From positions 1,824,001 through 1,888,000 of the forward strand of contig CBDASK010000003.1 in NCBI GenBank assembly GCA_965199495.1: a DNA stretch of 64,000 nt, read 5' to 3'. The position numbers and the translations under genes were made by a program. This document shows positions 550-63,862 of this stretch, in pieces. Below the pieces are notes generated by a model, which was not told where the DNA came from, did not search any database, and saw only the letters and a program-made list of their open reading frames with translations. The stretch's first letter is position 1; each line of letters starts with the position of its first letter. Origin of the DNA: Abditibacterium sp. (GTDB lineage: Bacteria; Armatimonadota; Abditibacteriia; Abditibacteriales; Abditibacteriaceae).

Positions 550-2070
550 ATGATTCAATTGAAACCCTCCGAAATTTGGTTTGTGACCGGCAGCCAGCAT
601 TTGTATGGCCCCGAAACTTTGCAACAAGTCGCCGCCAACGCGCAGCAAATTGCGCGCGGTTTGGACGACGCGGGTTTGCCATTGAACGTCGTTTTTAAGC
701 CGATTGTCACCACGCCCGAAGAGATTCGCGCGTTGTGCTTGGAAGCGACGAATGCGCCGCAGTGCGCCGGAATACTCGCGTGGATGCACACGTTTTCGCC
801 CGCCAAAATGTGGATCGGCGGCCTGAAAGTTCTCGATAAACCGTTGCTGCATTTGCACACGCAGTTCAACCGCGATTTGCCGTGGGGCGAAATTGACATG
901 GATTTTATGAATCTGAATCAAGCCGCGCATGGCGACCGCGAGTTCGGTTTCATCGGCGCGCGCATGAGAATCGCTCGCAAAATTGTCGTCGGTTATTGGG
1001 AAGACGGGGAAGTCCAAAAACGTATCGCGGTTTGGATGGGCGCCGCCCGTGGCTGGCACGATTGGCAGGGCGCGCGATTGGCACGTTTGGGTGATAATAT
1101 GCGTTATGTCGCCGTGACCGACGGCGATAAAGTCGCGGCGGAAATGCGTTTCGGCTTCATGGTCAACGGCTACGGCATCGGCGATTTGGTCGAACGCGTC
1201 GAAGCGATTTCGGACGCCGCGACCGACGATTTAATCGAGCGATACGAAAACGAATATGATGTCGCGGACAACTTGCGTGTAGGCGGCGACAAGCATCAGA
1301 GTTTGCGCGACGGCGCGCGTATCGAATTAGGTTTGCGCGATTTTCTGGAAAGCGAGAATTTCGTCGGCTTCACCGATTCATTCGAGGTTTTGCACGGCCT
1401 CAAACAGTTGCCCGGCTTGGCGGTTCAGCGTTTGATGAATGACGGCTACGGATTCGGCGGCGAAGGCGATTGGAAAACGAGCGCTTTAGTGCGCGCGATG
1501 AAAGTCATGGCGGTTGGATTGGAGGGCGGCACCAGTTTCATGGAGGATTACACCTATCATTTGCATCCGGGCGGCCATCAGGTTTTGGGTTCGCACATGC
1601 TCGAAATTTGCCCATCTATAACTTCGGGCGCGGCGGGCAAGCCAAAATTGGAAGTGCATCCATTAGGAATCGGCGGCAAAGAAGACCCGGTTCGGCTGGT
1701 TTTCGACGTGCCGTCTGGCCCGGCGATTAACGCTTCGATTGTGGATTTGGGCAATCGTTTTCGCTTGGTGGTCAACGATGTCGAATGCGTGGCGCCGCCG
1801 CAGGATTTGCCCAAATTACCGGTCGCGCGCGCTCTCTGGGAATGTCTGCCCGACTTCAAAACCGCTTGCGCCGCCTGGATTACGGCGGGCGGCGCGCATC
1901 ACACTGGTTTTTCGCAGGCGTTGACGAGCGAACACATGGAAGATTTCGCCGAAATTGCCGGTTTGGAGTTCGTGCCGATTGACGCGCAAACCACGATGCG
2001 CGGATTCAAACAAGATTTGCGCACCAACGAAATTTATTATCATCTGGCGCAGGGTTTGGGAGGCGTTTAA
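550..2070 (+). CDS. araA: L-arabinose isomerase
   Basis: [45 protein letters not shown] and GGAHHT motifs; 506 aa. Confidence 0.97.
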
Positions 2071-3078
2071 ATGAAAACTCAACTCGCCGTAAGATTGCAC
2101 GGCCCCGCCGATTTGCGCGTCGAAAACGTGCCATTTTCCGACTCACTTAGGCCCGACGAAGTCTTACTGCGCATAGCAGCCACGGGCGTGTGCGGCAGCG
2201 ATTTGCATCCCTACGAAACCGGCTCCATCGGCTCGACGACGCTCAATGCGCCTTTGATTATGGGCCACGAATTTAGCGGCGTTGTCGAAAAACTCGGCGC
2301 GAATGTCGAGAATTTGAACGTCGGCGCGCGCGTGGCTGTTGATCCGGCGTGGGTTTGTGGACAGTGTCGCGAGTGTTTGAGCGGGCATCAAAACTTGTGT
2401 CGCAAGCAGCGATTTTGTGGGTTGGCGCCCAACGATGGCAGTTTGCAAGAGCGCATCGTGGCGCCCGCGCGCTTTTGTCACGCGGTTTCGGAAAACATCA
2501 GCGATGCCGAAGCGGCGCTGTTGGAACCTCTGGGCATCGCGCTTCATGCGACCGATTTGGCGCGCATTCGAGTTGGTTGTAAAGTCGCGATTTTGGGCGC
2601 CGGGCCGATTGGTTTGTGTCTGGCGCAAACCGTCCGATTGACGGGCGCGACGACGGTTTGGATCGCGGATATATTGGAATATCGCCAGCAGTTCGCGGCG
2701 CGTTTTGGCGCCCAATCGTTGCCCAACGGTGCCGAAGCGGATGTCGTCATCGAAGCGGCTTGGGCGCGCGAATCGGTTGAGCGCGCGATGGAAATCGTGC
2801 GGCCCGGCGGGACGGTCGTTTTGGTCGGCATTCCGTTCGAGGACAGCGTCACGTTTTCGCATTCGGTCGCGCGCCGCAAAGGGTTGACGATTCTGATGAG
2901 CCGCCGCATGAACCAGACTTATCCACGCGCGATTTCGCTTGTGGAAAGCGGCGCGGTTGATTTAAAAAGTTTGGTGACCCATCGTTTTCCGCTCGCGCAA
3001 ACGCCCGACGCGTTTCGACTCAACGCGCAATATAAGGATGAAGTCATTAAAATTATCATCGAAAATGCAACCCCATAA
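2071..3078 (+). CDS. Zn-dependent medium-chain sugar-alcohol dehydrogenase (sorbitol/L-iditol DH-like)
   Basis: GVCGSD, GHEFSG, structural-Zn CxxCxxCx7C and GAGPIG motifs; abuts araA and overlaps araB. Confidence 0.88.
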   Translation: MKTQLAVRLHGPADLRVENVPFSDSLRPDEVLLRIAATGVCGSDLHPYETGSIGSTTLNAPLIMGHEFSGVVEKLGANVENLNVGARVAVDPAWVCGQCRECLSGHQNLCRKQRFCGLAPNDGSLQERIVAPARFCHAVSENISDAEAALLEPLGIALHATDLARIRVGCKVAILGAGPIGLCLAQTVRLTGATTVWIADILEYRQQFAARFGAQSLPNGAEADVVIEAAWARESVERAMEIVRPGGTVVLVGIPFEDSVTFSHSVARRKGLTILMSRRMNQTYPRAISLVESGAVDLKSLVTHRFPLAQTPDAFRLNAQYKDEVIKIIIENATP

Positions 3079-4732
3079 TCAATACGCCATCGGTTTGGAT
3101 TACGGCACCAACTCGGTGCGCGCGCTACTCGTCAATACAGCCACCGGCGCCGAACTCGGCGACGCGACGTGGAATTATGCGCATGGAACAAACGGCGTCG
3201 TGCTGGCGCGCGACCCGAATTTGGCGCGCCAACATCCCGCCGATTATCTGGAAGGCGCTGAGAAAACGATTCGCGAAGTTTTGAAAATCGCGCGCGTAAA
3301 CGTCGCGGGTTTTTCGCCCGATCAAGTCGTCGGCATCGGTGTGGACACGACCGGTTCGACACCATTGCCCGTTGGTAAAGGCGGCCAGCCGCTCGCGTTT
3401 GAAGAAAAATTTGCCGATAACGTCAACGCGTTGGCATGGCTGTGGAAAGATCACACTTCGATTGACGAAGCGGCCCAAATCACCGAATTGGCCGCGCGAA
3501 TGCGGCCCGAATATTTGGCGAAGTGCGGCGGCACTTATTCGAGCGAATGGTATTTCGCCAAAGTTTTGCATTGCCTGAGGGTGGACGAAGCCGTTTTTGA
3601 CGAGGCGCATCGCTGGGTCGAAATCGCCGATTGGATTCCGGCGATGCTGAGCGGAACTGGCGACGCCGAGAATATGAAAACCGGCGTGTGCGCGGCGGGC
3701 CACAAAGCGATGTTCAACGCCGATTGGGGCGGTTTTCCCGACGCCGAATTTTTGGGCGCACTGCATCCCAAACTCGCGCAACTGCGCGAACGCATGCCCG
3801 CCGTGGCTGCTACCGTGGACACGCCCGTCGGAGGATTAACCCCGAAATGGGCCGAGAAAACCGGTTTAAAAGCGGGCACGCCCATCGCCGTCGGCGCCTT
3901 CGATGCGCATTTGGGCGGCATCGGAGCGGGCATCGAACCGGGCACTTTGGTGAAAACTTTGGGCACTTCGACCTGCGATTTGATGGTGGTTTCGGGCGAG
4001 CAGGAATTGAAAGATATTCCCGGTTTGTGCGGCATCGTGATGGGCAGCATTTTGCCCGGTTATCATGGCCTCGAAGCCGGGCAAAGCGCGGTCGGCGATA
4101 TTTTCAACTGGTTCGTCGAATATCTCAAAACCGGGACACACGAAGAACTGACGCGCGGCGCGGGAGAACTTACAGCGGGCGAATCGGGTTTGGTCGCGCT
4201 CGATTGGAACAACGGCAATCGCACGATTTTGGTAGATCAGCGTTTGACCGGACTGCTCATCGGCCAGACGCTCTATACCACGCCCGCCGAAATTTATCGC
4301 GCTTTGATCGAAGCCACGGCGTTTGGCGCCTTGACGATTATCAACCGATTGGAAGAATATGGCGTGCAAGTCGAGCGCGTGGTGAATTGCGGCGGCATCG
4401 CCGAAAAAAATGCGGTCGCCATGCAGATTTACGCCGATATTATCGGGCGCCCGATGTTAGTTTCGCGTTCGAGCCAGACTTGCGCGTTGGGCGCCGCCAT
4501 CGCCGGAGCGGTCGCGGCGGGCGTTTACCCCGATATTCCGGGCGCGCAAAAAGCGATGACTGGTCTCAAAGAAATGGTTTATACGCCAGACAAAAATGCG
4601 CATGAAATTTATCAACGGCTTTACGCGATTTACCGGCAGTTGCACGACGCGTTTGGAACCAAAAGTTGGAATGGCAATTTGAGCAACGTGATGAAAGATT
4701 TGCTCGACATCCGCGACGAGGCGCGCAAATGA
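3065..4732 (+). CDS. araB: ribulokinase (FGGY family)
   Basis: IGLDYGTNSVRA, GVDTTGSTPLPV, GAFDAH, GTSTCD, EAGQSAVGD and DWNNGNR motifs; start taken as ATG 3065. Confidence 0.93.
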   Translation: MQPHNQYAIGLDYGTNSVRALLVNTATGAELGDATWNYAHGTNGVVLARDPNLARQHPADYLEGAEKTIREVLKIARVNVAGFSPDQVVGIGVDTTGSTPLPVGKGGQPLAFEEKFADNVNALAWLWKDHTSIDEAAQITELAARMRPEYLAKCGGTYSSEWYFAKVLHCLRVDEAVFDEAHRWVEIADWIPAMLSGTGDAENMKTGVCAAGHKAMFNADWGGFPDAEFLGALHPKLAQLRERMPAVAATVDTPVGGLTPKWAEKTGLKAGTPIAVGAFDAHLGGIGAGIEPGTLVKTLGTSTCDLMVVSGEQELKDIPGLCGIVMGSILPGYHGLEAGQSAVGDIFNWFVEYLKTGTHEELTRGAGELTAGESGLVALDWNNGNRTILVDQRLTGLLIGQTLYTTPAEIYRALIEATAFGALTIINRLEEYGVQVERVVNCGGIAEKNAVAMQIYADIIGRPMLVSRSSQTCALGAAIAGAVAAGVYPDIPGAQKAMTGLKEMVYTPDKNAHEIYQRLYAIYRQLHDAFGTKSWNGNLSNVMKDLLDIRDEARK

Positions 4733-5723: not shown

Positions 5724-7769
5724 ATGGCAATCTCTTCTCCCCCTCAGTCCATTTCCGACTCCCCAATAGTTTCTTCCAAGCATGATCGCGGCGTGACACC
5801 GCGCGTGGTGATTTTGTCGTTGCTGCTGGCGGCTTTTTTCGCTTACGTCATCCCGGTCATTGACTACAAATTTTTCAATACCTTTTTGGGCGCGACGCAC
5901 CTGCCACCGGGCGCCGTTGGCGCGTTGATTTTGTTGCTTTTAGTCGTCAATCCGCTATTGCGCGTGCTTTCGGCCAAGTTGGCGCTGGCGCGCAACGAAG
6001 TTTTGACGGTCTATCTGACCTGTCTATTTTCGACTTTAACCGTCGGCATCGGCGGCAACAATTATTTCGTTTCGTTTATCATTGGCTCGTTTTATTATTC
6101 GACGCGCGAGAACAAGTGGTTCGATGCGCTCAAAGGTTTGCCATCGTGGTTTACGCCCGCGCTGGGCGCCGATGGAAGTTACAATCGCGCCCTCGTCGAG
6201 AATTGGTATACCGGCATCAATGCGACGCAATCGGTGCCGTGGAGCGCGTGGCTGGTGCCGCTGTGCGCGTGGGGATTATTTTTCGCGGCGGCGTTTTGGA
6301 TGATGGCGTGTCTGGGCGTGATGCTGCGCGCGCAGTGGGGCGACCACGAGGTTCTCTCGTTTCCGCTCTTGCGCTTGCCGCTCGAAATGACGCGCGATAT
6401 GGACGAAAACACGCGCAAGATTCCACCGTTTTTCCGAGATTCGCTGATGTGGTGCGGCTTTGCCATCGTCGTGTTCATTCAGGGTCTCAACGGCCTCAAC
6501 CTCTATTTTCCCGATTTTCCCACGGTGCCGCTCAGCATTGACACCGGGCCGCTTTTGACCGAAGCGCCGTGGAATCAGGTGCCCGGCCTGGGACTGCAAA
6601 TTTGGCCGATTGCCGTCGGCATTTCCTATTTGCTAACCGCCGAAGTCGCGTTTTCGCTGTGGGCGTTTTTCCTGATGTTCAAAATGCAATACATTTTGGC
6701 CTACACGCTGGGATTTCCACCGAACTCGTTGCCCAACGTGCCGCAATCGGGCGATAAAGTTTTCATTGGCTATCAGGAAGTCGGCGCTTACTTGGCTTAT
6801 GCCGTCTTGATTTTCTGGGGCGCGCGCCGCCATTTCGCCCACATCTGGCGCCGCGCGATGGGCCGCGAGCGCGCTGGAACGGTCGAGAAAACCGAAGCCC
6901 TGCCCTATCCGGTCGCGTTTTGGGGCTTTATTGTGGGCTTCCTCGTGATGACCGCATGGGGCGTGGCTGCTGGCATGAGCCTGAGTCTTTCGATTTTGCT
7001 GTGGATTTCGTATGTTGTCATCGCCGTGGTTTTGTCGCGCGTCGTCGCCGAGGGCGGCTTGTTGTTCGTGCATCACACTTGGTCGCCGCTCAGCAGTCTG
7101 GCGGGCCTCATCGGTCAGGGGCCGGGCACGTTGCTTTCGCCTGCGGCGGGCGTGGCCAACGCCGCGTTTGTCGAAGTCGCGACGATCCAAGATTTCCGCG
7201 CCAGCCTAATGCCCTCGTTTGTGCAATCGTTCAAGCTGGCGCACGACCGAGGCATCGCCGCGCGTCCGCTTTTGTGGCTGATTGGCGCAGTGATTACGGT
7301 CGGCATGATCGTCGGTTTCATGATGAACGTGAACATGGGTTATCATGGCGGCGGCGGTCTGGCATTGCAGGGCTGGCTGAAAACTGCGGGGCCGCGCGCG
7401 GCGGCGGGCAACGCTTACGGCATGGCCAACACAACGGTGAACGGCGATCCGATAGCGTGGATTTTTACCGGCGTTGGCATCGCGGTTATCGCCATCACGA
7501 TGCTGATGCGCGCGCGTTTCGCGTGGTGGCCATTTCACCCGCTGGGTTATTTAATGGCGACGAGTTATCCAGCGCACGCGTTCTGGTTCTCGATTTTTCT
7601 GGGCTGGCTCGCCAAAACGCTCATTTCGCGTTACGGCGGTAGCGAAACCAGCCGCCGCGCCCTGCCATTTTTCCTCGGCCTCGCGTTGGGCGATGTGATG
7701 ATGATGCTGTTCTGGATTGGCGTGGATGGCTACTTTGGCCGCACCGGACACCAACTCATGCCTGGGTAG
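5724..7769 (+). CDS. polytopic membrane protein, DUF6785/DUF6784-like putative transporter
   Basis: 681 aa with many TM segments; QWxxxExLxFPL, RxVAEGG, WPFHPLGY and PFFLGLALGD motifs. Confidence 0.7.
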   Translation: MAISSPPQSISDSPIVSSKHDRGVTPRVVILSLLLAAFFAYVIPVIDYKFFNTFLGATHLPPGAVGALILLLLVVNPLLRVLSAKLALARNEVLTVYLTCLFSTLTVGIGGNNYFVSFIIGSFYYSTRENKWFDALKGLPSWFTPALGADGSYNRALVENWYTGINATQSVPWSAWLVPLCAWGLFFAAAFWMMACLGVMLRAQWGDHEVLSFPLLRLPLEMTRDMDENTRKIPPFFRDSLMWCGFAIVVFIQGLNGLNLYFPDFPTVPLSIDTGPLLTEAPWNQVPGLGLQIWPIAVGISYLLTAEVAFSLWAFFLMFKMQYILAYTLGFPPNSLPNVPQSGDKVFIGYQEVGAYLAYAVLIFWGARRHFAHIWRRAMGRERAGTVEKTEALPYPVAFWGFIVGFLVMTAWGVAAGMSLSLSILLWISYVVIAVVLSRVVAEGGLLFVHHTWSPLSSLAGLIGQGPGTLLSPAAGVANAAFVEVATIQDFRASLMPSFVQSFKLAHDRGIAARPLLWLIGAVITVGMIVGFMMNVNMGYHGGGGLALQGWLKTAGPRAAAGNAYGMANTTVNGDPIAWIFTGVGIAVIAITMLMRARFAWWPFHPLGYLMATSYPAHAFWFSIFLGWLAKTLISRYGGSETSRRALPFFLGLALGDVMMMLFWIGVDGYFGRTGHQLMPG

Positions 7770-7955: not shown

Positions 7956-10900
7956 TCACACGTTCACCGCGCCCGATGGCAACACGGGAGGCGGCGCGTT
8001 GATCGGCAAAACCGCGCCCGTGTCCATCAGAGAGCAGAGATGGAAAATGCGCTCGACCTCGGCGACAGGCTGAGGGCGACCAAAAAAGTAACCCTGACAC
8101 TTATCGCAACCCAAATCTTGGAGATGCTCGATTTCGCCCGCCGTCTCGGCGCCCTCAGCCACGACGACGAGCTTGAGGGCGTGCGCAAGCGTCACCATCG
8201 AAGTCACGATGGCGCTGTTGTCGGGTTCGCTGTCAATGTTCGAGACGAATTGACGGTCAATTTTGAGATAATCGAACGGAAAAGCGCGCAGATAAGCCAG
8301 ACTGGAGTAGCCGGTGCCAAAGTCGTCAATCGCCAGCGTTAAACCCAGCGTTTTGAGTTCGTTCATTGTCGTCAAAACCTGCTTGGTGCGTTCGACGATG
8401 GCGCTTTCAGTGATTTCTAATATCAATTCACAGGGGTCTAAACCGCTTTGTTCCAAGGCGCGCGCCACCATTGGCACTACATCGGGCAGGTGAAGTTGGC
8501 GCGCCGAGATATTGACCGCCATGCTGAGCGGATGCGCGCTGTTGCGGTTCCACGCCACGGCCTGACGACAAGCGGCCTCCAAAACCTGAAAGCCCAACGG
8601 CACAATTAAGCCGTTTTCTTCGGCCAGCGCGATAAATTCGCTCGGCATCACCAGACCGCGCGTCGGATGATTCCAGCGCACGAGGGCTTCAAAGCCACTG
8701 ACGCGGTCGGCGCCTAAATCCCACGTCGGCTGAAAATACAGCTCGAACTCGCCGTTTTGCAGCGCGCGCCGCAGGTCGTTTTCCAATTCCAAACGTTGCA
8801 GAGCGTTGCCGCTCATACTCGTCTCGTAAATCGCGAAACAGGCTTTGCCGCGTCGCTTGGCCTCATACATCGCCGAGTCGGCGTGACGCAGCAGTTCGTC
8901 GGCGTTGCTGCGGTCTGTGCCCGAAAACGCGATCCCAATCGAGGGCGTGGTGAAAACTTCGTGGCCCTCGATCACAAACGGTTCGCGCATCGCTTCCAAA
9001 ACGCGCTCGGCCACCGTAATCGCGTAACCCGGCGCCTCCAAATCTTCGAGCAAAATCACGAACTCGTCGCCGCCAAAGCGCGCCGCCGTATCGCCCTCGC
9101 GGAGCGCCGCGCGCAATCGCTCGGCCAGCGCCACCAACAGTTCGTCGCCCGCGCTGTGGCCCAGCGAATCGTTGATATATTTGAAGTTATCCAGATCAAT
9201 GAAAATAATCGCGACCCGATCTTCGCCGCTACCGCGCCGTTGCAGCGCGTGTTCCAAGCGGTAGCGCACCAAAACGCGATTGGCCAAGTGCGTCAACGGA
9301 TCGTGGAACGCCTGATGCTTGAGCCGGTCTTCCAAAGCGCGCCGCTCGGTAATATCAGCCACCGACGCGACAATGCCGGAAAACAGACCGCGATCATCGA
9401 GTAGCGGCGCCGCGTTGAGCGACGCGATGATGGTGCGCCCGTCGGCACGGTCAATGCGAAACTCGAACTCATGCAACGCCTCACCCGTCGCCCGCACGAT
9501 TTGAAACGGATGCTTTCCGCCAGCGAATGCTTTGCCTTGCAGATCGAGCAAATTCCAGCGACCATCGTAAATCGTGCGTTCTTCGATGCTGTTGCGGTCG
9601 AGCGCGAAAGTGCGCTCGGCGGCGGCGTTGGCGAACTGGATTTGGCCTTCGGCGTTAATCACCAGAAAAGCGTCGGCGGCGGTCTCGAAGATGCGCTGCA
9701 AACTCTGGCGACTGGAACGCAACTCTTCTTCGTTGCGACGTTGTTCGGTGATGTCGGTGCAAACCGCCAGCAGGCGCGGCGCCCGGTCTTCCGAATCAAT
9801 CAAGCGTTGCAGCAAGCGTCCGCGCAAGCGCCAGACGCGGGTTTCGCCGTCGTATCGAATCAGGCGAAAATCAATTTCGATGGTTTCGCCCGCGCGCAGT
9901 GGCCGCAAGCAAGCGCGCCGCACCTGATTTTGGTCGGCGCTGTGAATATGCGCGATCCACGACTCAAAGGTGCGCTTCATGCCGCCTGCGCTGTGGCCCA
10001 TCATGCCGTCTATGTCGCCGTGCCATTCCAAAAAGTCGGCGCCGACTTTCCAAACCCAGAACGCATCGCCCGCGCCCAACGCCAACTGCGCCATTTGCAG
10101 TTGCAACGCCTCGCCCTGCCGGTGCCGCCGCGTCGCCGCGTCGAGGGCGCTCAACGCCCGATTGACGCCTTCGCCAAACTCCGACCATTCGTCGCGCCCG
10201 CCGAACTGCAACGGCGGCGCCTGTCCCTCGCGATGCACCGCTTCCAGATAGCGCCCAAAACGCGACAAACGGTAGCGATAAATCTCGCCCGGCACCAAAC
10301 CCAACAACAGCATCACCGCGCCCAGAGCGAGCAGCACAAGCGGCAAAAATGCCACAAAAGATCGCTCAGGCGCGCGCTCGCCGGGCGCGCCCAGAACAAA
10401 GAGCGGATTGCCATCGGCAGAGCGCACCAATTCATAGCCCATCACGGCATCGCCCGTCGAATCAAAAACATTGTCGCCAGCGAGATGGCGCCCGGAGCCA
10501 CCGGCACAACTGCCGGTGGCTCCGGTCGAAGACGCTTCCAGCAAATCATTGACGGCGGTCGGCGCTTGAGCGCACAGCCAAACCTTAACATCGCTCTTCG
10601 TCTCTTTCAAACTGCCGCGAATCTGAACCGGCAAAACGCGGCGCCCGATGACGATGGTGCCCTGCTTCACCTTCTGTTTTTCGATGGGCGCGGCACTCAA
10701 AACCCAAAGCTGATTGTTTTTCAGAAAGAACCTTCCGCGCGCCGTCTTGAGCGATTTGAGCAGGGGCAAACCGGGATCGAGTTGACCGCGAATCTCTGAC
10801 GGCAACGACGCCACCTTACCGTTTTTATCGAGATAAATCGCGCTTTTCACGCGGGCTTTGGCATCGAGAACCATTAAAACGCTCACATCAAAAGCGCGCA

Positions 10901-11465: not shown

Positions 11466-12473
11466 TCACATTAATTCGCTCACCATAACTTCGCGTTTTT
11501 CTTGCGCGCTTTGAATCGCCGCGAAAACCATCGCCAGCGATTTCAAGTTGTCCTGAGCGCCGCACTCCGGCTGGCGGTTATCACGGATGGCAGCGAAAAA
11601 TTCGTCCAACATCGCTTGATCGGCGGGCGCGGTTTCGTCCAATTTAATTTCGCGGTGATCGACTTTTTCTTCGGCGCGATGCAGATGCGAATGGAACAAT
11701 TTATCGTTTTCCCAATCGAGCGAACCCTGCGGGCCTTCGAGGCGCCAGTCGCCATTGTAGGTCGTGCGCGAACCGACGGCGGCGCCGTTGGCGACGTGCG
11801 TGGCGACCAAACCCGACGCGAACCCAAACGTAATCGAATGACAGGCATCGCCCGCGTGCCAGCCCTACGAGGGATTCCACGTTTGGGCGCGCACGCTCAC
11901 TGGGTCTTCGTTGATAACATAGCGCATCATGTCGAAATGATGCACCATCATATCGTTGATGAGCATAAACGGCTCGGTCACATAATGCGAGCCGGGAATA
12001 TCGGCCCAGTTCATGTAAAACTTGATGTCGCACTGGCCGGGCTTGCCGATTAAACCTTCGTCCAAAACGCGGCGCGAAGTGCGCGGCAACGCGCCAAAAC
12101 GATAATTTTGCGTGATCATATGCGTCAGTCCGGCGGCGTGGCTGGCGGCGGCGACCTTTTTGGCGCTCTCGAAATTATCCGATAACGGCTTTTCGCCGAT
12201 GACGTGCAAACCGTTTTCAAACGCCTGAAACGCGATTTCGGGATGAACCGCCGGAGGCGTCACATCCAACACGAAATCGGCGTCAGAATTTTGGATCGCT
12301 TCATCGAGCGAAGCGAAAATCGTGTCGCGCGCGACATCGTGCTTTTCCACGGCGCGGGTAATCGAGCCTTCATAAGGTTCGACAAACGCGACGATTTCAA
12401 CATCGGGATGGCGGCGCGCATTGCCCAGCCAATGTAAGCCACGTCCGCCCAGTCCAGTGAGAATTGCTTTCAT
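11466..12473 (-). pseudogene. Gfo/Idh/MocA oxidoreductase interrupted by an in-frame TAG
   Basis: GLGGRG, EKP, QNYRF and DMMVHHFD motifs; reads WNPS*GWHAGDACH with TAG at 11867-11865, and the C-terminal half continues in the same frame to 11466. Confidence 0.8.
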
Positions 12474-12503
12474 GATATTTGGATTATTTAATTTGACACT
12501 CAT

Positions 12504-36970: not shown

Positions 36971-38488
<1,518 letters not shown>

Positions 38489-38696: not shown

Positions 38697-38751
38697 TCGT
38701 TTGTCTCAATTCACGCCCTGATGTGGTATTGGAAGTGCAGCCACGTCCAAA

Positions 38752-52886: not shown

Positions 52887-53272
52887 CCGGACGAAAGAGC
52901 GCCGTCAAAGACGCCTTTACCTCTATTTTTCGGGGCCGCAAACTTCGCGCGTGCGCCGCTTATTTCGTCCAAGCGCGCGTTCAGCGATTTCAATTCTTCG
53001 CCCGCCAATTTCGCCCGCGCCTTGTCCGCTTCGCTCCACTGTTTTTTGGCGAATAGCGCGCTATAAGTGCGTTTATATTGCTCGATGTCGCGCCCCAGTT
53101 TGTCGCGCTCAACTTCAATCGAATTCAATTCGATTTTTTGCTGCTGGCGCACTTGGTCGCGCTGAACTTTGTCGAAATGCGACCAGCCGATGAGCGCCAG
53201 CGAAAACAGCAGCCAAACGTAGGGAGGAAGCCGCCAGAACCAGAGCCACGCCGCCTTGAACTTTTGCTTCAT
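52883..53272 (-). CDS. hypothetical membrane-anchored coiled-coil protein
   Basis: One N-terminal TM followed by a charged helical region. Confidence 0.55.
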   Translation of the reverse strand: MKQKFKAAWLWFWRLPPYVWLLFSLALIGWSHFDKVQRDQVRQQQKIELNSIEVERDKLGRDIEQYKRTYSALFAKKQWSEADKARAKLAGEELKSLNARLDEISGARAKFAAPKNRGKGVFDGALSSG

Positions 53273-53292: not shown

Positions 53293-53940
53293 TCAATCCG
53301 TCGCCGAGGCGCCGACAACTGTCAACAATCGCGTTTGCGGCGAGTAAACCGTCCACCAAAACGCGCCCCACCATTCGTGTCCAGCATCGAAATAATTCGA
53401 CCAATTGGTTGACCAACTGTAAATTGCGCAATCGCTCAAATCGCCGTTCCATAATTGCTTGTTGACGCGCTCGAAAAGCTCGATCTGCTCTTTGGGCGAC
53501 AGTCTCAGAGGATACGGCGGATTGAAAAACGCGGTCTTGTAGCCGTCTCTTTCGGGAATCAAAAAGGAACTTTTTCCCGTCGGTGTGGGAAACGCGTCGT
53601 CGTTGCCCCAAAACTGCGCGGCACGAATCAGCGCGCCATTTAATTTGGCGGCGTCGAAACTCACGCGCCAAAACTGTTCGAGGGGAAAATCTCGGTTGCT
53701 CAAAGTTTGCGCGCGATGATCGTAAAACGCGGCGATGCGCTCCATCGCTTCGAGCGCCATTTGGGCGTGGCTGCTTTGGTCGGGCGCGTCGTTTTGTCGA
53801 AACGGCACGTAATTTAGCACGCAACCGATGTTATCGAGAACATCGAGCGTTTCGTTTAGATGCGGTTCGTCTGGCAAGGCAACAAATTGAGGAAAGGTGA
53901 GCGTTTGCATGAACGTTTTACGCGCGCGTTTACGCTTCAA
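53293..53940 (-). CDS. conserved-looking hypothetical protein
   Basis: AFFNPPY and WSTNWSNYFDAGHEWWGAFWWT..GASATD; start may be at 53910. Confidence 0.65.
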   Translation of the reverse strand: MKRKRARKTFMQTLTFPQFVALPDEPHLNETLDVLDNIGCVLNYVPFRQNDAPDQSSHAQMALEAMERIAAFYDHRAQTLSNRDFPLEQFWRVSFDAAKLNGALIRAAQFWGNDDAFPTPTGKSSFLIPERDGYKTAFFNPPYPLRLSPKEQIELFERVNKQLWNGDLSDCAIYSWSTNWSNYFDAGHEWWGAFWWTVYSPQTRLLTVVGASATD

Positions 53941-54596: not shown

Positions 54597-55793
54597 TCAA
54601 GGAGTTTGTAAATTCGGCAACTGATTGATAACGCCCGGTTTCAACACGCCCGGCTTGATGATAATGCCCGGATTTATGATGAGGTTGGGCGAAACGGTTT
54701 TGATGTAATAACCGTATTTGGCGTAGGTGCGGATGTAATCGTAGGAGAGATAGCCGTAGCCCGAATGTTGCCAATTCGCGCCCCACGAGTTTTTCACGAT
54801 GAAATACTTTTTGGCCGAGTCGAATCCGCAAATTACCATCGCGTGGCCCGCCGTGGCTGCCATCGGCTGGTTGGTCGCCGAGTTGATGACGACATCCAAA
54901 ACGCCGTCGGCGTTGGCGCTGCCCCACGCGACGAAAGTGCCGAAAACGATGTTGTTGCCCGCGCGCAAAACCGATTCCAGATAGCGCGGATTTTTGATGC
55001 TGGCCGCGCCATCCGCACCGCCATCGCTAATCAACTGGTAGGACGTAATTTTATACTTCTGCGCGGCGGCAGCGGCGGCGGGCACCGTCGTGTTGGCGGC
55101 TGGAATGCTGTTGGTATAGGGCCACAGGCTTTCCACGACAGTGCCATCGGCCAGATAAATCGCCGATTGGGTCGTTACGATGCCCTTGTCGTAATCGGGT
55201 TTGCGGTTCTCTTTGCGCATGAACAGATCGTAAGAATACTGTTCCGACAGGTCGTCGGGAATGGACTTGAAGGCCTCCATCGCGGCGTTGGCGGCATGGG
55301 CGACGCAGGTGCCGCGCGGCCCCTGATCGCGAATCGGCGTCATATCCGCGCGATGGTCAACGACCGTCGGAATGAAAACTTTGCCCAGCACAAACGGCGA
55401 TGTGCGAATCGTAGCGAGCGGCTCTTTGAGGCGAATATAGGGCGCGAACTCCTGCAAATCGGCGGGCACTTCGTCGGTGTTGACTTCGGGCGCTTGCATC
55501 AAATCCAGCGGAATCAGCGCTTTTTCCTCGCCGTTTTCCAATTTGATAAAGGGAATATCGGCTCTCAGGAAAAACCGGTTGTCGAAAGTGGCGGGCGCGA
55601 CTTTGAGTTTGGTCGCCAACAAATGCGCCTGAAGTTGCGGCGAAACGTTGACCTGAAAAGTTGGGACGTTCCTAATCTGCAAATTCGGTTGCAGATTTGG
55701 AATTTGAGCTTTGGCGGGCGCGCTCGCCAACAGACTTCCAGTCACGGCCAAGGCAAGTGGCAACGCGTGACGCGAGGAAAAAGATTTTAACAT
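54597..55793 (-). CDS. secreted C1A papain-like cysteine protease
   Basis: Signal peptide; DQGPRGTCVAHA (Q, C), LSEQY, GHAMVICGFD (H) and KNSWG (N). Confidence 0.9.
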   Translation of the reverse strand: MLKSFSSRHALPLALAVTGSLLASAPAKAQIPNLQPNLQIRNVPTFQVNVSPQLQAHLLATKLKVAPATFDNRFFLRADIPFIKLENGEEKALIPLDLMQAPEVNTDEVPADLQEFAPYIRLKEPLATIRTSPFVLGKVFIPTVVDHRADMTPIRDQGPRGTCVAHAANAAMEAFKSIPDDLSEQYSYDLFMRKENRKPDYDKGIVTTQSAIYLADGTVVESLWPYTNSIPAANTTVPAAAAAAQKYKITSYQLISDGGADGAASIKNPRYLESVLRAGNNIVFGTFVAWGSANADGVLDVVINSATNQPMAATAGHAMVICGFDSAKKYFIVKNSWGANWQHSGYGYLSYDYIRTYAKYGYYIKTVSPNLIINPGIIIKPGVLKPGVINQLPNLQTP

Positions 55794-57914: not shown

Positions 57915-57980
57915 CTTGCGAATTAATTCCAATCAAGGCGCCGTGGCTTATAGCCGCGGCGCCTTGATTGCGACGGATTA

Positions 57981-59107: not shown

Positions 59108-59689
59108 ATGCCCGACGCCGAATTTACCGACGAGACTTCTGCGCCCGACCCCAGCTACGGCGCCCGTGGCTGCGTGTTGTTTGCGAGCTTAAAGCACGTC
59201 TTCTGGCGCGCACCGCGCCGCTATGAATGGTTAATTTGCGCGCTTTTGCCGGTAGTTTGGCTGGGGTTTGGCGCGACGCCAATTCAATTACTATTGGTTT
59301 TGTGCGGTGCCGCGTTGGGAGTGCGCGGCGTAGAATTGGCTGACTATTACGGGCGAAATCAATGGCCGCACGACCAGCGCAAGCAACAATATCCGATCAA
59401 GGTTTATTACGCGATTTGGCTGCTGTTGCTACTTAGCGGACTCATCAAAGCCTTTTTCGTTCAGCTTTTCACAGAACCCGGCGAGACGTTAATCGGAATC
59501 GGAATTGTCGCCGCGTTTCTGGCGTGGTTGGCTCCGATGATGTGGTCGCTCGACCGCGTTTTCAAACCGTGGGCGCAGCGCGGCGGCGACAAAGTTGCGC
59601 CCGCACTTGTCTTCGTATTTTTGTGCGGATGTTGGTTTTTCGTTTCGATGTTTTTGCTATTGCACGTCACCGGCAAGCTGACTTCGTAG
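59108..59689 (+). CDS. hypothetical membrane protein
   Basis: About five hydrophobic segments. Confidence 0.55.
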   Translation: MPDAEFTDETSAPDPSYGARGCVLFASLKHVFWRAPRRYEWLICALLPVVWLGFGATPIQLLLVLCGAALGVRGVELADYYGRNQWPHDQRKQQYPIKVYYAIWLLLLLSGLIKAFFVQLFTEPGETLIGIGIVAAFLAWLAPMMWSLDRVFKPWAQRGGDKVAPALVFVFLCGCWFFVSMFLLLHVTGKLTS

Positions 59690-60361: not shown

Positions 60362-62314
60362 TTAATCCTCGACTTTCTCGAAGCCCAAAAAACTCTTGAG
60401 TTTTTCCCACCAGCTCTGCGCGGCGGTCTCAGACTTTCGCCCACTTTTGGCGGGCGGCGAATCGGTGCGGCGAAAAATATCCTCGGCGCGATTTCGACCT
60501 GTGCCCTCCGAATCATTGGCACCTTCAGCGCGGGCGCCACGTTCGGTTGTCGCGGCGGAAAAACGTTCCGCGTCGCCTGAATTTGAGGAGGCGGTCGCAT
60601 TCGTTTGCTCGGACGAGCGCGCGGCGGGGCGTAAAGACGTTCGTGAAAAAATGCTCTGGCCCGACGATTCGCCAGTTCTCGTGCTTTCCGGGCGTATCAC
60701 TTCGCCGCGCACACCTTCGCCGCGCGGTGGCGTTGTCCGGGCCTCGAAGCGAGGCGCCTCGAATGGGGCGCCATTGCCAGCAGGATTCGCATTCGCGTCG
60801 CTGGCGACGGGCGGCGTGGCTGCTGTTTCGGCGGAGGGACTTTGCGATGCTGACGCCTCTTTTGCAGCAGCCACCGGCGCGCCGGATTCCGATGTTCCAG
60901 TGGCGGCAGTTTGAGGCTGTGCGGGAGCCTTGGAAATCGGCGACGGCGCGAGCGGCGACGATTCCATGATGTTGGGCACGATATTAAGGAGCGGCTCGCC
61001 CTTGCCAGATTCTCTGGGCCGGGCCTCGGAGACGCGAGCTTCGGAAGCGCGGGCGGCGGAGGTAAAGCCGGGCGCCGTGGCTGCGTTTTCGCCGGAAGCG
61101 ATGGCGCCCCAGATGCGACGGCCTTCGAGCGTGGCGATGCGCGGAATCACGGCCTGATTGTTGGGCGATTGGCGTTGCGTCAACGCGAAGCGGCACAAAC
61201 CAACGCCCGTCGCCAGTTGCGGCATCGCGACTTGATCGCTCCAACCGGTCACGCCGTGCGGGTAGCCCAAGCGCACTGGCATCGCGAAAACCGTGCTGGC
61301 CAATTCGATGGCGCCCGGCAATAAGGCGCCGCCGCCGCTCAAAATCACGCCGCCCGGCACGCGCTGGGGCGCGCCACTGCTGTGCATCATTTCGTGCGCC
61401 AACTCGAACAGCTCGCTCATGCGCGCCTCGATGATTTCGCCCAAAATCGCGCGCGGAATCCGCAGACGCTCGTGCGTGCCCGACATCGTGACTTCGAGCG
61501 CCTCGCCGTGCGGAATCATCTCGCGCGTGGCCGCGCCCGACTCCAACTTCAAATCTTCGGCGACCTCGAACGGCGTGCGCAGTCCAATCGCGATGTCGCG
61601 CGTGACGTGATTGCCGCCGACCGGCAACACGCCCGAATAGACGATGGTGCCGTCGTGGAAAACCGCGATATCCGACGTGCCGCCGCCGATGTCAATCAAA
61701 ATCACGCCCATCTCGCGCTCGTCCGCCGTCGTGACGGCTTCGGCGGTGGCAATCGGCTCCAAAACCAGCGCGTCCACTTTCAGGCCCGCGCGCTCGACGC
61801 ACTGCACGGCGTTTTGCAGATAGGGCGCTTTGCCGGTGACGATATGAGTTTCGACTTCGAGTTTTTGGCCGGTCATGCCGATGGGCCGGTAAACGCCGCC
61901 GTGGCCGTCAACGGTGAAAGTGCGCGGCAGCGAATGAATAATTTCGCGGTCGCGCGGCACTTCCAAAGCCGCCGCCTGCAAAACGCGGCGCACATCGTCG
62001 CGGGTGATGGCGCCCTGCCCGCCCGCAACTGTCACGGCGGCGTGACGATTCGACGATTCGATATGTTCGCCGGTGACGCCGACGATGACGCCCCGGACTT
62101 TGACGCCCGCCATATGCGCGGCGCGCTCGACCGAGTGTTGGATGGCGGCGACGGTTTCTTCGACATCCACGACGACGCCGCGCTTGATGCCGCGCGAGGG
62201 CGTGCTGCCCACGCCGATGACGCGCAGACTGCCTTCGGCAGCCCCGGCGGCGATCACAGTGCCGACCTTGGTCGTGCCGATGTCGAGTCCAACAACAATT
62301 TCTTCGCGCGTCAC
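60362..62314 (-). CDS. ftsA: cell division protein FtsA with a very long disordered C-terminal linker
   Basis: VGLDIGTTKV, SRGIKRGVVVD, IDIGGGTSD, GGNHVTRDIA, IIEARMSE and SGGGA; C-terminal amphipathic helix SWWEKLKSFLGF; GTG start at 62314 assumed. Confidence 0.93.
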   Translation of the reverse strand: MTREEIVVGLDIGTTKVGTVIAAGAAEGSLRVIGVGSTPSRGIKRGVVVDVEETVAAIQHSVERAAHMAGVKVRGVIVGVTGEHIESSNRHAAVTVAGGQGAITRDDVRRVLQAAALEVPRDREIIHSLPRTFTVDGHGGVYRPIGMTGQKLEVETHIVTGKAPYLQNAVQCVERAGLKVDALVLEPIATAEAVTTADEREMGVILIDIGGGTSDIAVFHDGTIVYSGVLPVGGNHVTRDIAIGLRTPFEVAEDLKLESGAATREMIPHGEALEVTMSGTHERLRIPRAILGEIIEARMSELFELAHEMMHSSGAPQRVPGGVILSGGGALLPGAIELASTVFAMPVRLGYPHGVTGWSDQVAMPQLATGVGLCRFALTQRQSPNNQAVIPRIATLEGRRIWGAIASGENAATAPGFTSAARASEARVSEARPRESGKGEPLLNIVPNIMESSPLAPSPISKAPAQPQTAATGTSESGAPVAAAKEASASQSPSAETAATPPVASDANANPAGNGAPFEAPRFEARTTPPRGEGVRGEVIRPESTRTGESSGQSIFSRTSLRPAARSSEQTNATASSNSGDAERFSAATTERGARAEGANDSEGTGRNRAEDIFRRTDSPPAKSGRKSETAAQSWWEKLKSFLGFEKVED

Positions 62315-62866: not shown

Positions 62867-62956
62867 GGGGAAAGGATAAAGGATTAAGGCGCAAGGATAA
62901 AGGTGGAAAACGCGACACTCGCTATGAATGCCCTAATTTTTATCCTTTATCCACGT

Positions 62957-63862
62957 TTACTGCTGTGCGTCCACTTTTTTGGCGGCTTCTTTGTTGATGT
63001 GGCTAACTTTTTCGGCGTCGGTCGGTTCGGCCTGCGCGACGCGCATTTTGGGCACGCCGCCCGTGGCTGCGGGCAACTCGATGTTGTCCACTTTCTCGAC
63101 TTTGACGCCGATAGTCGCGCTGGATTTCAGGTTGTCAACGATGCCGCCCGCCATCGTCATCGCCGAAATCAGCGTGTTGGGATTGCCGATGGCTTCGATG
63201 GTGAATGGAGCAGCCACGCCCTCCCAGTTGACCATGATCGTGGGGCCGACGCAGCGAATTGGCGTGTAGCCGGTCACGCGCACCGGGTCGCCGCCCGCGC
63301 CATAAATCGCGATGGCTTCGGCTTTGGCCGAGCGCAGTTCGTTGACGACCTGCTGCAAATCGAAATCGTGAACCAATCCCGGCATCGCCTGCGACGGATC
63401 GCCACCCGCGACGGCGGGGTCATCCGACAGCGTGATGCGAATGCCCGGCCCGCGCAAATTCGTCAGGCCCGCGACGGTTTGCAATTCTTTGATTTGCCCG
63501 TTGAGCGCGGTGATTTGCGTGGTCGTGAGCTTGCCGCCATCAACCAATTTCCTTTTGAGCGCGCCCAGTTCCGCGTCCATCGTCAGGCGCTCGCGGTCGG
63601 CGGCGGCGGCTTTGGTTTTCATCTGCGCCGCCAGCGCCGTCGCTTCGATAGTGCCCTTTTTTTCTTTGACCTGATTATCGCGCATCTGCTGCGTCGCGCG
63701 CAGTTGCATCGCGACCAGAGCGCCGAAAATAAAACAAACGCCGGTCAACGAAACCATCCACGATTTGCCTTTGCGCGCCCGTGGCTCCTGTGGAGACGTT
63801 TCGATAATGACCGGCAAATCGGAAGATTGGGGCGGGCGGGGAGCAGTGAGAGGAGCGTTCAT
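62957..63862 (-). CDS. DUF881 protein (YlxW/YlxX-like)
   Basis: TM plus coiled coil; AGLT..RGPGIRITLSD, VHDFDLQQVVNEL..A.AEAIAI and PFTIEAIG. Confidence 0.9.
   Translation of the reverse strand: MNAPLTAPRPPQSSDLPVIIETSPQEPRARKGKSWMVSLTGVCFIFGALVAMQLRATQQMRDNQVKEKKGTIEATALAAQMKTKAAAADRERLTMDAELGALKRKLVDGGKLTTTQITALNGQIKELQTVAGLTNLRGPGIRITLSDDPAVAGGDPSQAMPGLVHDFDLQQVVNELRSAKAEAIAIYGAGGDPVRVTGYTPIRCVGPTIMVNWEGVAAPFTIEAIGNPNTLISAMTMAGGIVDNLKSSATIGVKVEKVDNIELPAATGGVPKMRVAQAEPTDAEKVSHINKEAAKKVDAQQ

Follow-up and report, generated by a model that had tools for sequence, protein, structure and literature searches.

The 64,000-nucleotide stretch of DNA analyzed here (referred to as the window; G000:C3:1824001-1888000, where G000 designates the source genome and all other G-numbers its relatives) is studded with the heptamer CGTGGCT. 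This heptamer forms the core of a longer word of 11-12 bases, 5'-CG[C/G/A]CGTGGCTG(C)-3', that is written throughout the chromosome. The word constitutes a new instance of the uptake-sequence-like genomic words. By analogy, it is best described as a self tag of the type represented by the DNA-uptake sequences (DUS) of the Neisseriaceae and the uptake signal sequences (USS) of the Pasteurellaceae, a function that we favor tentatively and at somewhat less than an even chance. The genome of G000, with a completeness of 95%, consists of three contigs, namely a chromosome, which measures 4.72 Mb and has a G+C content of 55.7%, and two small replicons with lengths of 24.7 and 64.6 kb.

The original prediction, which was made from the window alone, counted 63 copies of CGTGGCT, with 38 on the forward strand and 25 on the reverse strand (as AGCCACG), and both the counts and the coordinates proved to be exact. 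The excess that it had estimated is also real, given that 100 dinucleotide-preserving shuffles of the window yielded 8.63 ± 3.32 copies, the largest value being 17. As had been described, the base following the heptamer is usually a G (43 of the 63 copies), and the copies lie mostly within genes and in several reading frames. Indeed, 59 of the 63 are found in open reading frames (ORFs), where every frame class is represented, one is located in a 16S rRNA gene, and three are intergenic, with these placements based upon crude home-made gene calls to which six ORFs were added.

There are 4,533 copies of CGTGGCT on the chromosome, which corresponds to 0.96/kb. Markov models of orders 1-5 predict 617, 859, 800, 1,461, and 3,384 copies, respectively. 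The order-5 value is inflated because it is built from the enriched hexamers of the word itself (GTGGCT, for example, occurs 6,390 times versus 3,073 expected), yet it is still exceeded with a z-score of ~37. The 21 heptamers differing from CGTGGCT by a single mismatch display observed/expected (O/E) ratios of 0.30-1.98 as compared to 5.67 for CGTGGCT itself. A count explained by an order-5 model or by a codon- or dipeptide-preserving shuffle (see below) and an equal enrichment of the near-miss words were the outcomes that the original prediction had named as speaking against a signal, and none of them was observed.

The bases flanking the heptamer are biased on both sides. On the 5' side the frequencies are 0.69 for C at position -3, 0.77 for G at -2, and, at -1, 0.38 each for C and G and 0.17 for A, whereas on the 3' side they are 0.68 for G at +7 and 0.51 for C at +8. 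In light of these biases, the unit is CG[C/G/A]CGTGGCTG(C), and thus the heptamer that had been put forward as the signal is a genuine core, but the true unit is 11-12 bases in length. The 11-mer pattern, CG[C/G/A]CGTGGCTG, occurs 1,691 times on the chromosome versus ~20 expected. The commonest 11-mers of the genome are CGCCGTGGCTG and CGGCGTGGCTG with 1,051 and 640 copies, respectively, where Markov models of orders 1-4 predict 6-25 of each. The form belonging to G000's own dialect is CGCCGTGGCTGC. The word is non-palindromic, with CAGCCACG being the reverse complement of CGTGGCTG. A literature search outside the subscription journals did not find CGTGGCTG, CAGCCACG, or four longer forms. By their titles and abstracts, none of the matches listed in that search, which again lay outside the subscription journals, dealt with an uptake signal or natural competence in Planctomycetes or in free-living bacteria of the Planctomycetes-Verrucomicrobia-Chlamydiae (PVC) type, to which we presume the host to belong solely on the basis of its DUF1559/N_methyl pilin-like paralogues.

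The word is a DNA-level signal that is independent of coding, as had been proposed, and this conclusion is fully supported. For this analysis 3,453 genes were called with a simple codon-score ORF picker, which is crude and assigns 82% of the DNA as coding. The called genes contain 4,061 copies of CGTGGCT versus 741 ± 28 following synonymous-codon shuffling within genes (20 times) and 626 ± 25 following shuffling of the codon order (10 times). All six strand/frame classes are enriched, with the two dominant frames being xxC GTG GCT G.. (Val-Ala, 1,757 copies) and xxA GCC ACG (Ala-Thr, 1,217 copies). GCT is a minor alanine codon in G000, accounting for 10.1% of the total. In Val-Ala pairs preceded by ..C and followed by G.., however, GTG-GCT is employed in 44.7% of 2,676 cases versus 3.6% expected, and in Ala-Thr pairs following ..A, GCC-ACG is employed in 58.5% of 2,080 cases versus 14.4% expected. 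The extended logo is identical in 460 intergenic and 4,060 coding copies. The density of the word is 1.04/kb in coding versus 0.55/kb in intergenic DNA in G000, and 0.87/kb versus 0.62/kb in its relative G011.

The chromosomal copies are divided nearly equally between the two strands (2,277 versus 2,256), and no 100-kb bin is skewed. A cumulative forward-minus-reverse walk along the 4,533 sites stays within -46 to +30, which is narrower than a random walk. Note that both GC skew and gene-strand bias are weak in G000. The even spread first noticed in the window holds for the entire chromosome. Copies avoid one another at short range, in that the pair correlation of the word has values of 0.66-0.77 for distances under 500 bp and recovers to 1.0 at ~750-1,000 bp. 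The coefficient of variation (CV) of the gaps is 0.89, and 148 gaps are longer than 3 kb versus the 254 expected for random placement. For 74 control heptamers with 3,500-6,000 copies, CGTGGCT and CAGCCAC included, the median pair correlation and CV are 1.15 and 1.10, respectively. Of the 40 heptamers with individually listed values, all have pair correlations of at least 1.01 except CGTGGCT and the overlapping CAGCCAC. Ordinary words therefore cluster, and among those listed only CGTGGCT is spread out. The USS are likewise spaced more evenly than random. As an exception to the avoidance, tight inverted pairs of the word number 61, of which 26 are convergent at 15-16 nucleotides and 35 are divergent at 11-14 nucleotides (~1.1 expected per distance), and there are 48 direct pairs within 80 nucleotides versus ~170 expected from the site counts. 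Nineteen of the tight pairs in G000 are intergenic, with six situated between convergent gene ends and one between divergent gene starts, where the baseline numbers of such spacers are 433 and 480, respectively.

Eight gaps are longer than 8 kb versus 2.1 expected, and most of the longest ones have a low G+C content and an atypical tetranucleotide usage. Typical 10-kb windows carry the word at 1.02/kb, which drops to 0.50/kb among the 5% that are most atypical (Spearman rho -0.23, p = 7e-7), and the O/E ratios for the two small replicons are 2.3 and 1.6 versus 5.7 for the chromosome. The densities of 0.55/kb within 10 kb of a TIR site and 0.70/kb around a retron site in G000 lend only mild support to a depletion at these locations. 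Three regions of the chromosome, at 410-520, 1120-1260, and 4215-4290 kb of G000:C3, carry the word at 0.49, 0.44, and 0.52/kb, respectively, or about half the usual density. They hold many of the longest word-free gaps, several of which are low in G+C, and are likely to be big acquired regions.

The word is confined to a small clade. Of the 31 nearest genomes, only G000 (1,692 copies), G011 (1,392), and G004 (413), all of which belong to one genus, contain the 11-mer pattern far above the control level; in the other 28, including 10 of the same genus, it is at the control level (taxonomic labels for family, genus, and phylum follow the search tool). The 8-mer core is present in 3,091, 2,676, and 3,503 copies in G000, G011, and G004, respectively, versus ~300 for the control pattern, and it is at the control level in the remaining 24 of the 27 family genomes. 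In a sample of 401 genomes from the phylum, only these three are enriched (0.58-0.70/kb), and the next highest value is ~0.14/kb. The DNA identity to G000 is 82-91% for G011, the nearest relative, 77-88% for G004, and 67-78% for G003, G006, and G012. The three carriers are kin rather than independent, and thus they represent one origin and not three. Small samples of other members of the genus, amounting to 120 kb each for G012 and G006 and 40 kb for G002, revealed no word of their own at ~1/kb.

The copies are conserved beyond expectation between G000 and G011. In 139 kb of alignment at 85.2% identity, 103 of 134 sites in G011 (77%) and 103 of 147 sites in G000 (70%) are identical in the other genome, as compared to 2,880 of 6,407 (45%) for heptamers of the same composition and 34-43% for heptamers located 12-30 nucleotides from the sites. 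Outside of the word, the per-base identity dips to 0.72-0.81 at every third position, whereas from -2 to +8 it is 0.89-0.97. The third-position dips are thus lost over precisely the 11-mer, which is therefore the conserved footprint, silent positions included. For G004 and G000, aligned over 286 kb at 80.4% identity, 90 of 179 sites in G004 (50%) and 90 of 310 in G000 (29%) are shared, with a control value of 32%. The differences between the word in G000 and its orthologous positions are point substitutions rather than insertions. A comparison of these sequences suggests that the common ancestor may have carried ~0.3 sites/kb and that both lines continued to gain copies thereafter, the G000/G011 line more rapidly. 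A history without gain was considered and rejected; it requires an ancestor with ~2.2 sites/kb together with faster-than-neutral loss in G004, and it conflicts with the conservation between G000 and G011.

Statistics for G004 are derived from a 480-kb sample of its ~5.0 Mb, and those for G011 from a 279-kb sample. The G011 sample carries the G000 form, CGS-core-C. In G004 the heptamer is as frequent as in G000, but its flanks differ, namely (CCGT)AGGA-core-GTGT(C). The intergenic form reads cgccgTAGGA-CGTGGCTG-GTGTCg and the coding form gGa-CGTGGCTG-.tgt, and the densities of the core are 0.65/kb in coding and 1.87/kb in intergenic DNA. The 15-mer GGACGTGGCTGGTGT occurs 1,288 times in G004, three times in G000, and not at all in the other 11 genomes of the genus, G011 included. 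As judged from these sequences, G004 employs a dialect built upon the shared 8-base core.

The copies in the window are listed below by span, strand, and context. The terms sense and antisense are relative to the coding sequence (CDS) or ORF, and the codon position is that at which the copy starts.

1048..1054, +, copy, CGCCCGTGGCTGGC; CDS 550-2070(+), L-arabinose isomerase, sense, codon position 1
2178..2184, -, copy, CGCCCGTGGCTGCT; CDS 2071-3078(+), antisense, codon position 3
2331..2337, +, copy, CGCGCGTGGCTGTT; CDS 2071-3078(+), sense, codon position 3
3802..3808, +, full 11-mer copy, CCGCCGTGGCTGCT; CDS 3038-4732(+), sense, codon position 3
4312..4318, -, copy, ACGCCGTGGCTTCG; CDS 3038-4732(+), antisense, codon position 3
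6247..6253, +, copy, AGCGCGTGGCTGGT; CDS 5724-7769(+), sense, codon position 2
6962..6968, +, copy, GGGGCGTGGCTGCT; CDS 5724-7769(+), sense, codon position 3
8157..8163, -, copy, TCGTCGTGGCTGAG; CDS 7956-11180(-), sense, codon position 3
12137..12143, +, full 11-mer copy, GCGGCGTGGCTGGC; CDS 11865-12503(-), antisense, codon position 1
12437..12443, -, copy, CGGACGTGGCTTAC; CDS 11865-12503(-), sense, codon position 1
12955..12961, -, copy, CGGGCGTGGCTGGT; CDS 12661-13485(-), sense, codon position 3
14720..14726, -, copy, TCGTCGTGGCTTCT; CDS 14600-16204(-), ABC-F, sense, codon position 3
16552..16558, -, copy, CCGGCGTGGCTCGT; CDS 16385-17017(+), frr, antisense, codon position 3
17111..17117, +, full 11-mer copy, intergenic, TCGCCGTGGCTGTT
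17445..17451, -, full 11-mer copy, GCGCCGTGGCTGTC; CDS 17364-18176(+), uppS, antisense, codon position 1
19210..19216, +, full 11-mer copy, CCGCCGTGGCTGCT; CDS 19058-20443(-), antisense, codon position 1
20190..20196, -, full 11-mer copy, GCGGCGTGGCTGCT; CDS 19058-20443(-), sense, codon position 2
20986..20992, +, copy, GGAGCGTGGCTGGG; CDS 20453-21091(-), antisense, codon position 1
22463..22469, -, copy, GGGACGTGGCTGGT; CDS 22229-24931(-), sense, codon position 3
25125..25131, -, full 11-mer copy, CCGCCGTGGCTGCG; CDS 25035-25814(-), sense, codon position 3
25230..25236, +, copy, TCGGCGTGGCTATC; CDS 25035-25814(-), antisense, codon position 3
25620..25626, -, full 11-mer copy, TCGCCGTGGCTGCC; CDS 25035-25814(-), sense, codon position 3
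26781..26787, +, full 11-mer copy, GCGCCGTGGCTGCA; CDS 25908-27431(-), antisense, codon position 3
27179..27185, -, copy, TTGTCGTGGCTGCG; CDS 25908-27431(-), sense, codon position 1
27225..27231, +, copy, CGGGCGTGGCTTCG; CDS 25908-27431(-), antisense, codon position 3
28673..28679, -, full 11-mer copy (A variant), TCGACGTGGCTGCT; CDS 28601-29575(-), sense, codon position 3
29245..29251, +, copy, AAGCCGTGGCTGGC; CDS 28601-29575(-), antisense, codon position 1
29876..29882, -, copy, GCGCCGTGGCTCCT; CDS 29753-30430(-), sense, codon position 3
30364..30370, +, copy, GCGACGTGGCTACA; CDS 29753-30430(-), antisense, codon position 1
31325..31331, +, copy, GGCGCGTGGCTGCT; CDS 30716-31918(-), antisense, codon position 3
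31720..31726, -, copy, GGCGCGTGGCTACG; CDS 30716-31918(-), sense, codon position 1
32664..32670, +, copy, TCGCCGTGGCTTTA; CDS 32614-33768(+), sense, codon position 3
33237..33243, +, copy, GCGCCGTGGCTCGT; CDS 32614-33768(+), sense, codon position 3
33582..33588, +, copy, AAGACGTGGCTGCT; CDS 32614-33768(+), sense, codon position 3
33961..33967, +, copy, TACGCGTGGCTTTA; ORF 33771-34355(+), sense, codon position 2
34202..34208, +, copy, CGTTCGTGGCTGTC; ORF 33771-34355(+), sense, codon position 3
34387..34393, +, copy, TCGTCGTGGCTGCC; CDS 34235-35017(+), sense, codon position 3
35857..35863, +, copy, TCGGCGTGGCTCGC; ORF 35499-36290(+), sense, codon position 2
37448..37454, -, copy with poor flanks, TAGCCGTGGCTTAT; within 16S rRNA gene 36971-38487(+), antisense
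38739..38745, -, copy, intergenic, TGGACGTGGCTGCA
38807..38813, +, full 11-mer copy, TCGGCGTGGCTGTG; ORF 38752-39996(+), sense, codon position 2
40028..40034, -, full 11-mer copy, GCGGCGTGGCTGGC; ORF 39962-40411(+), antisense, codon position 1
42251..42257, +, full 11-mer copy, TCGGCGTGGCTGGT; CDS 41648-42964(-), antisense, codon position 3
42341..42347, -, copy, TCGTCGTGGCTGTT; CDS 41648-42964(-), sense, codon position 3
43616..43622, +, full 11-mer copy, GCGGCGTGGCTGTT; CDS 42840-43958(+), sense, codon position 3
44121..44127, -, copy, CGGACGTGGCTGCG; CDS 44012-44920(+), antisense, codon position 2
45023..45029, +, copy, CGGGCGTGGCTGTC; CDS 44976-45734(+), sense, codon position 3
46522..46528, -, copy, GCGCCGTGGCTCCC; CDS 45904-46653(-), superoxide dismutase, sense, codon position 3
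47638..47644, +, full 11-mer copy, CCGCCGTGGCTGCT; CDS 46663-48048(-), antisense, codon position 3
49775..49781, +, copy, TCGCCGTGGCTCAC; ORF 49640-50191(+), sense, codon position 1
51196..51202, +, full 11-mer copy (A variant), TCGACGTGGCTGCT; CDS 50591-51388(-), antisense, codon position 1
52476..52482, +, copy, CCGCCGTGGCTACC; CDS 51618-52721(-), antisense, codon position 3
52641..52647, -, full 11-mer copy, GCGCCGTGGCTGCA; CDS 51618-52721(-), sense, codon position 3
53244..53250, -, copy, GCGGCGTGGCTCTG; ORF 52883-53272(-), sense, codon position 2
53766..53772, +, copy, TGGGCGTGGCTGCT; ORF 53293-53940(-), antisense, codon position 1
54852..54858, +, full 11-mer copy, CCGCCGTGGCTGCC; CDS 54597-55793(-), antisense, codon position 3
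57942..57948, +, copy, intergenic, GCGCCGTGGCTTAT; 5' arm of hairpin 57931..57969
57931..57969, +, imperfect inverted pair, CAAGGCGCCGTGGCT-tat-AGCCGCGGCGCCTTG; second arm one base off the word
59165..59171, +, copy, CGCCCGTGGCTGCG; ORF 59108-59689(+), sense, codon position 1
60815..60821, +, full 11-mer copy, GCGGCGTGGCTGCT; CDS 60362-62383(-), FtsA, antisense, codon position 3
61076..61082, +, full 11-mer copy, GCGCCGTGGCTGCG; CDS 60362-62383(-), FtsA, antisense, codon position 3
63062..63068, +, copy, CGCCCGTGGCTGCG; CDS 62957-63862(-), antisense, codon position 3
63212..63218, -, copy, AGGGCGTGGCTGCT; CDS 62957-63862(-), sense, codon position 3
63780..63786, +, copy, CGCCCGTGGCTCCT; CDS 62957-63862(-), antisense, codon position 2

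The hairpin at 57931..57969, which had been noted originally, is real, with the segment from 57922 to 57985 displaying a folding energy of -41.3 kcal/mol (z -7.6). It occupies the spacer that separates the stop codon of CDS 56976-57914(+) from the start codon of CDS 57981-59078(+), a terminator-like location, and has no run of T's. The copy within the 16S rRNA gene was probably not written in but simply belongs to the normal rRNA sequence.

In the portions of the published accounts drawn upon here, DUS and USS are described as 9-12 nucleotides in length, present in at least 1,000 copies, and found as inverted pairs in terminators (PMC1852404), and the DUS dialects of the Neisseriaceae as sharing a core and following phylogeny (Frye et al. 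2013, PMC3630211). The word described here is likewise short and non-palindromic, with at least ~1,000 copies at approximately one per kb that are equally distributed over both strands and without replication polarity. It is imposed on coding DNA against the codon habits, its silent sites are conserved, it is rarer in recently acquired DNA, and its clade-specific dialects share a core. Terminator-like inverted pairs are observed, yet only the 19 tight pairs are intergenic in G000, whereas doublets are abundant in G004.

With respect to the DUS of the Neisseriaceae, as far as the sections of PMC3630211 used here describe them, the likeness extends to a non-palindromic word of ~12 nucleotides in thousands of copies on both strands, both genic and intergenic, to hairpin-forming inverted pairs, to dialects with a common core that track phylogeny, and to an apparent origin within one clade. 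The differences, on the same partial footing, are that the phylum and the sequence are unrelated, that the shared core is 8 nucleotides rather than 3, that the word is denser in coding DNA (in G000 and G011), and that a ComP-like receptor for it is hypothetical. The USS of the Pasteurellaceae, again in the parts of the sources employed here (PMC1852404, PMC1626085), resemble the word in having a strong core with weaker flanks, a density of approximately one per kb, no polarity, and frame preferences among the coding copies; the word differs in having no AT-rich flanking segments, in its lineage, and in that its receptor is putative. Judged by its unrelated sequence, the word is not a member, by descent, of the DUS (CTG core) or the USS family, and the host lies outside of those families.

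In one small clade the word has been introduced into the chromosome thousands of times through point substitutions, chiefly at silent positions of codons, and has since been retained. According to the uptake model, a putative surface receptor, perhaps pilin-like, would bind the word in extracellular DNA, and the tagged fragments would be pulled into the cell via a secretin/type IV pilus, ComEA, and ComEC, with loading by DprA and subsequent recombination. Because tagged alleles would be taken up more often, new copies would spread in the population by molecular drive, and gain would end at approximately one copy per 0.5-1 kb, beyond which there would be no further benefit. G004 would read the same 8-base core with different flanks, and hence a dialect. 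Drive by biased uptake and recombination would explain the gain by silent substitution, the saturation at approximately one copy per fragment length, and the co-evolving flanks.

The uptake sequence suggested by the original prediction thus stands in part. The lack of skew, the depletion in foreign DNA, the conservation at synonymous sites, and the sister dialect all accord with it, and the machinery is present in G000, which encodes a ComEC (an 862-residue frame), a ComEA (361 residues with SLBB and HHH_3 domains), DprA, and eight secretin matches. Several observations, however, weigh against such a function. ComEC, ComEA, DprA, and the secretins are found equally in G006 and G012, both of which are devoid of the word, so that these genes, although required by the model, are non-discriminating and do not explain the clade limit. 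No candidate receptor or other clade-specific gene was found, and a regular expression for prepilin leaders applied to the crude gene calls returned 18 ORFs but no handle. The word is poorer in intergenic than in coding DNA in both G000 and G011, whereas intergenic DNA is relatively rich in DUS and USS. In G004, REPIN-like doublets with a GTAG head account for about half of the copies; elements of this type usually belong to a transposase system, and the core could thus be part of a nuclease recognition site. What these data establish is the word itself together with its extent, excess, strand symmetry, even spacing, conservation, clade limits, and dialect; both the uptake function of the word and the identification of its putative reader with the uptake machinery are proposed by analogy.

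An alternative explanation, which we regard as possible but rather doubtful, is that the word is a self tag, or an iterated word, read by something other than uptake machinery, similar in spirit to HIP1 of the cyanobacteria. Candidate readers include a sequence-specific nickase or a repair bias that turns near-misses into the word, as has been proposed for HIP1, an abundant nucleoid protein, and a defence system that spares tagged DNA. The excess, the symmetry, the even spacing, the silent-site conservation, the clade limits, and the depletion in foreign DNA fit such a reader equally well, and the competence genes do not track the word. HIP1 (GCGATCGC) is also a hyper-abundant short word of one lineage, located in both coding and non-coding DNA and conserved beyond expectation, with a reader that is likewise hypothetical. 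It is, however, a palindrome, hypothetically linked to methyltransferases, whereas the word described here is asymmetric, and an assignment as a HIP1-type iterated palindrome was therefore rejected. In addition, no candidate reader was found. Vsr matches over the cut-off are absent from G000 and G011, and the only one in G004 lies on a small contig beside a C5-methyltransferase; the C5-methyltransferases do not form a clade-specific shared set, and no shared Vsr/methyltransferase pair was found among these genomes. The C-to-T and G-to-A neighbors of the word, with O/E ratios of 0.68-1.93, are not depleted in the manner predicted for a bias of the very short patch (VSP) type.

It is improbable that the copies in G000 are remnants or targets of a repetitive extragenic palindrome (REP/REPIN) family moved by a RAYT-type Y1 transposase, with the heptamer forming part of the REP. 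In the portions of the sources consulted, a REPIN is defined as two inverted REPs and a spacer, and many REPs carry GTAG (PMC3337134, PMC3733652). The intergenic copies in G004 are mostly inverted doublets, GACACCAGCCACGTCCTAC-N~16-GTAGGACGTGGCTGGTGTC, with a constant offset of 34 nucleotides, a variable spacer, and a GTAG head; in G000 the orthologous spacers lack them. In their anatomy these doublets, amounting to ~1,300 arms per genome, are REPIN-like. Furthermore, each of the five genomes tested contains Y1_Tnp genes, and there are other GTAG-headed hairpin families in G000. On the other hand, 4,061 of the 4,533 copies in G000 (~90%) are within ORFs, the differences between orthologues are point substitutions with a conserved footprint of just 11 nucleotides, and G000 and G011 are without doublets, containing the 15-mer three times and not at all, respectively. 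Extragenic inverted doublets are thus a property of the G004 intergenic form only, and any association of the word in G000 and G011 with a RAYT is hypothetical. The coding copies in G004 share the flanks of the doublets, which transposition leaves unexplained. Eight Y1 genes were examined in G004, and in no case is the gene enclosed by inverted arms. Several have arms at distances of 0.1-1.1 kb that never form an inverted flanking pair, and given the background of 1.87 arms/kb such nearness means little. Taken together, the coding location and the origin by substitution leave a REP/REPIN origin of the G000 copies close to refuted. In one region of G004 (G004:C8:1194985-1202887), a 7.9-kb insertion with a CGTGGCT doublet near each end is observed where G000 has a 48-nucleotide spacer.

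An origin of the excess as a by-product of amino-acid, codon, or mutational bias, in keeping with which the Val-Ala and Ala-Thr frames dominate, was refuted and retains hardly any probability in view of the two shuffles, the use of a minor alanine codon, the same logo in intergenic DNA, the unenriched near-miss words, and the lack of the word in 10 of the 12 other genomes of the genus, which are of similar composition. Equally negligible is a polar chromosome signal, either Chi-like (read by RecBCD or AddAB) or KOPS-like (read by FtsK), the former of which the original prediction had offered as an option. As with Chi and KOPS, the word is short, G-rich, asymmetric, and over-represented, with its core an 8-mer of high copy number, and we count in favor of Chi that the G004 form contains GCTGGTG, which we take to be seven bases of the Escherichia coli Chi sequence. 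Chi and KOPS, however, are strongly co-oriented with replication, and the orientation of the word is unbiased in every 100-kb bin and on both presumed replichores. This strand symmetry, without the skew switching at ori and dif that characterizes KOPS and the architecture imparting sequences (AIMS), refutes KOPS. Chi was rejected both for the lack of co-orientation and for want of a partner: RecC was not found in the 95%-complete genome of G000, and no AddAB-type nuclease was detected there, the only two PD-(D/E)XK_1 matches being a 299-residue ORF in an atypical region and a 1,421-residue nuclease fused to an SF1 helicase, neither of which is AddAB-like.

Several other elements were observed in and around the window. 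A near-perfect hairpin element of ~186 nucleotides at 16227-16412 (-133.7 kcal/mol), positioned between the ABC-F gene and frr, gives 146 BLAST high-scoring segment pairs in G000 in both orientations of the palindrome, and thus ~70 copies; there are copies in G011 as well, and it looks like a miniature inverted-repeat transposable element. A second GTAG-headed hairpin family (GTAGAGAC[A/G]CCGATTTATCG...) is found at ~4754-4836, 29600-29693, 40438-40521, and 41521-41629, with 104 copies of the 20-mer and 294 of GTAGAGAC in the genome; it also occurs in G004 and is REPIN-like, with no connection to the CGTGGCT word. Positions 45734-45903, which separate a SIMPL-family gene from that for superoxide dismutase, contain a long inverted repeat (ggggcttgcgccctcttccaatc ... 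gattggaagagggcgcaagcccc); the equivalent position in G004 is occupied by 1.7 kb of different DNA that includes a CGTGGCT doublet.

The 16S rRNA gene at 36971-38487 stands alone, with no 23S rRNA gene in the remaining 25 kb of the window, and the rRNA genes thus seem to be unlinked. A tRNA gene at 49221-49292 is followed by the ORF at 49640-50191, which has a weak Y1-transposase match, and by 50591-51388(-), a 265-residue fragment of an MmeI-type restriction-modification enzyme that retains just the N-terminal and helicase-spacer domains; the region from 49221 to 51388 is probably an island remnant. The product of the gene at 13571-14533(-) is a DUF1559 protein that carries a prepilin N-methylation motif. 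Its N-terminal coding segment of 180 nucleotides has many further matches in G003, G004, G011, and G012, and a few in G006, and the paralogue family is therefore very large. Finally, the 120-kb sample of G006 contains ~42 copies of a repeat including CTCGATTAAAGG and TTGTGGGATTGA, possibly an array of clustered regularly interspaced short palindromic repeats (CRISPR).

To our knowledge, sequence-specific DNA uptake occurs in only two proteobacterial families. The word may represent a third and independent DNA-uptake-sequence system outside of the Proteobacteria, one that would be young and limited to three species within a single genus. Copies would still be accumulating, and the system would already have diverged into two dialects that share an 8-base core, with the tag in one species carried and multiplied by a REPIN-like mobile hairpin. 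Taken in its entirety, this proposal is uncertain and in our opinion appreciably less likely to be right than wrong. If it is correct, either a selfish element captured the uptake tag of its host or the tag began as such an element. How uptake systems originate and change their specificity is an open question, and here the whole history would be contained within one genus, in which ten species are without the word, two have one dialect, and one has another, and in which the orthologous sites show the gain by silent substitution. Should the word be read by something other than the uptake machinery, it would provide a clean bacterial case of another DNA-reading system that writes evenly spaced words into a genome.

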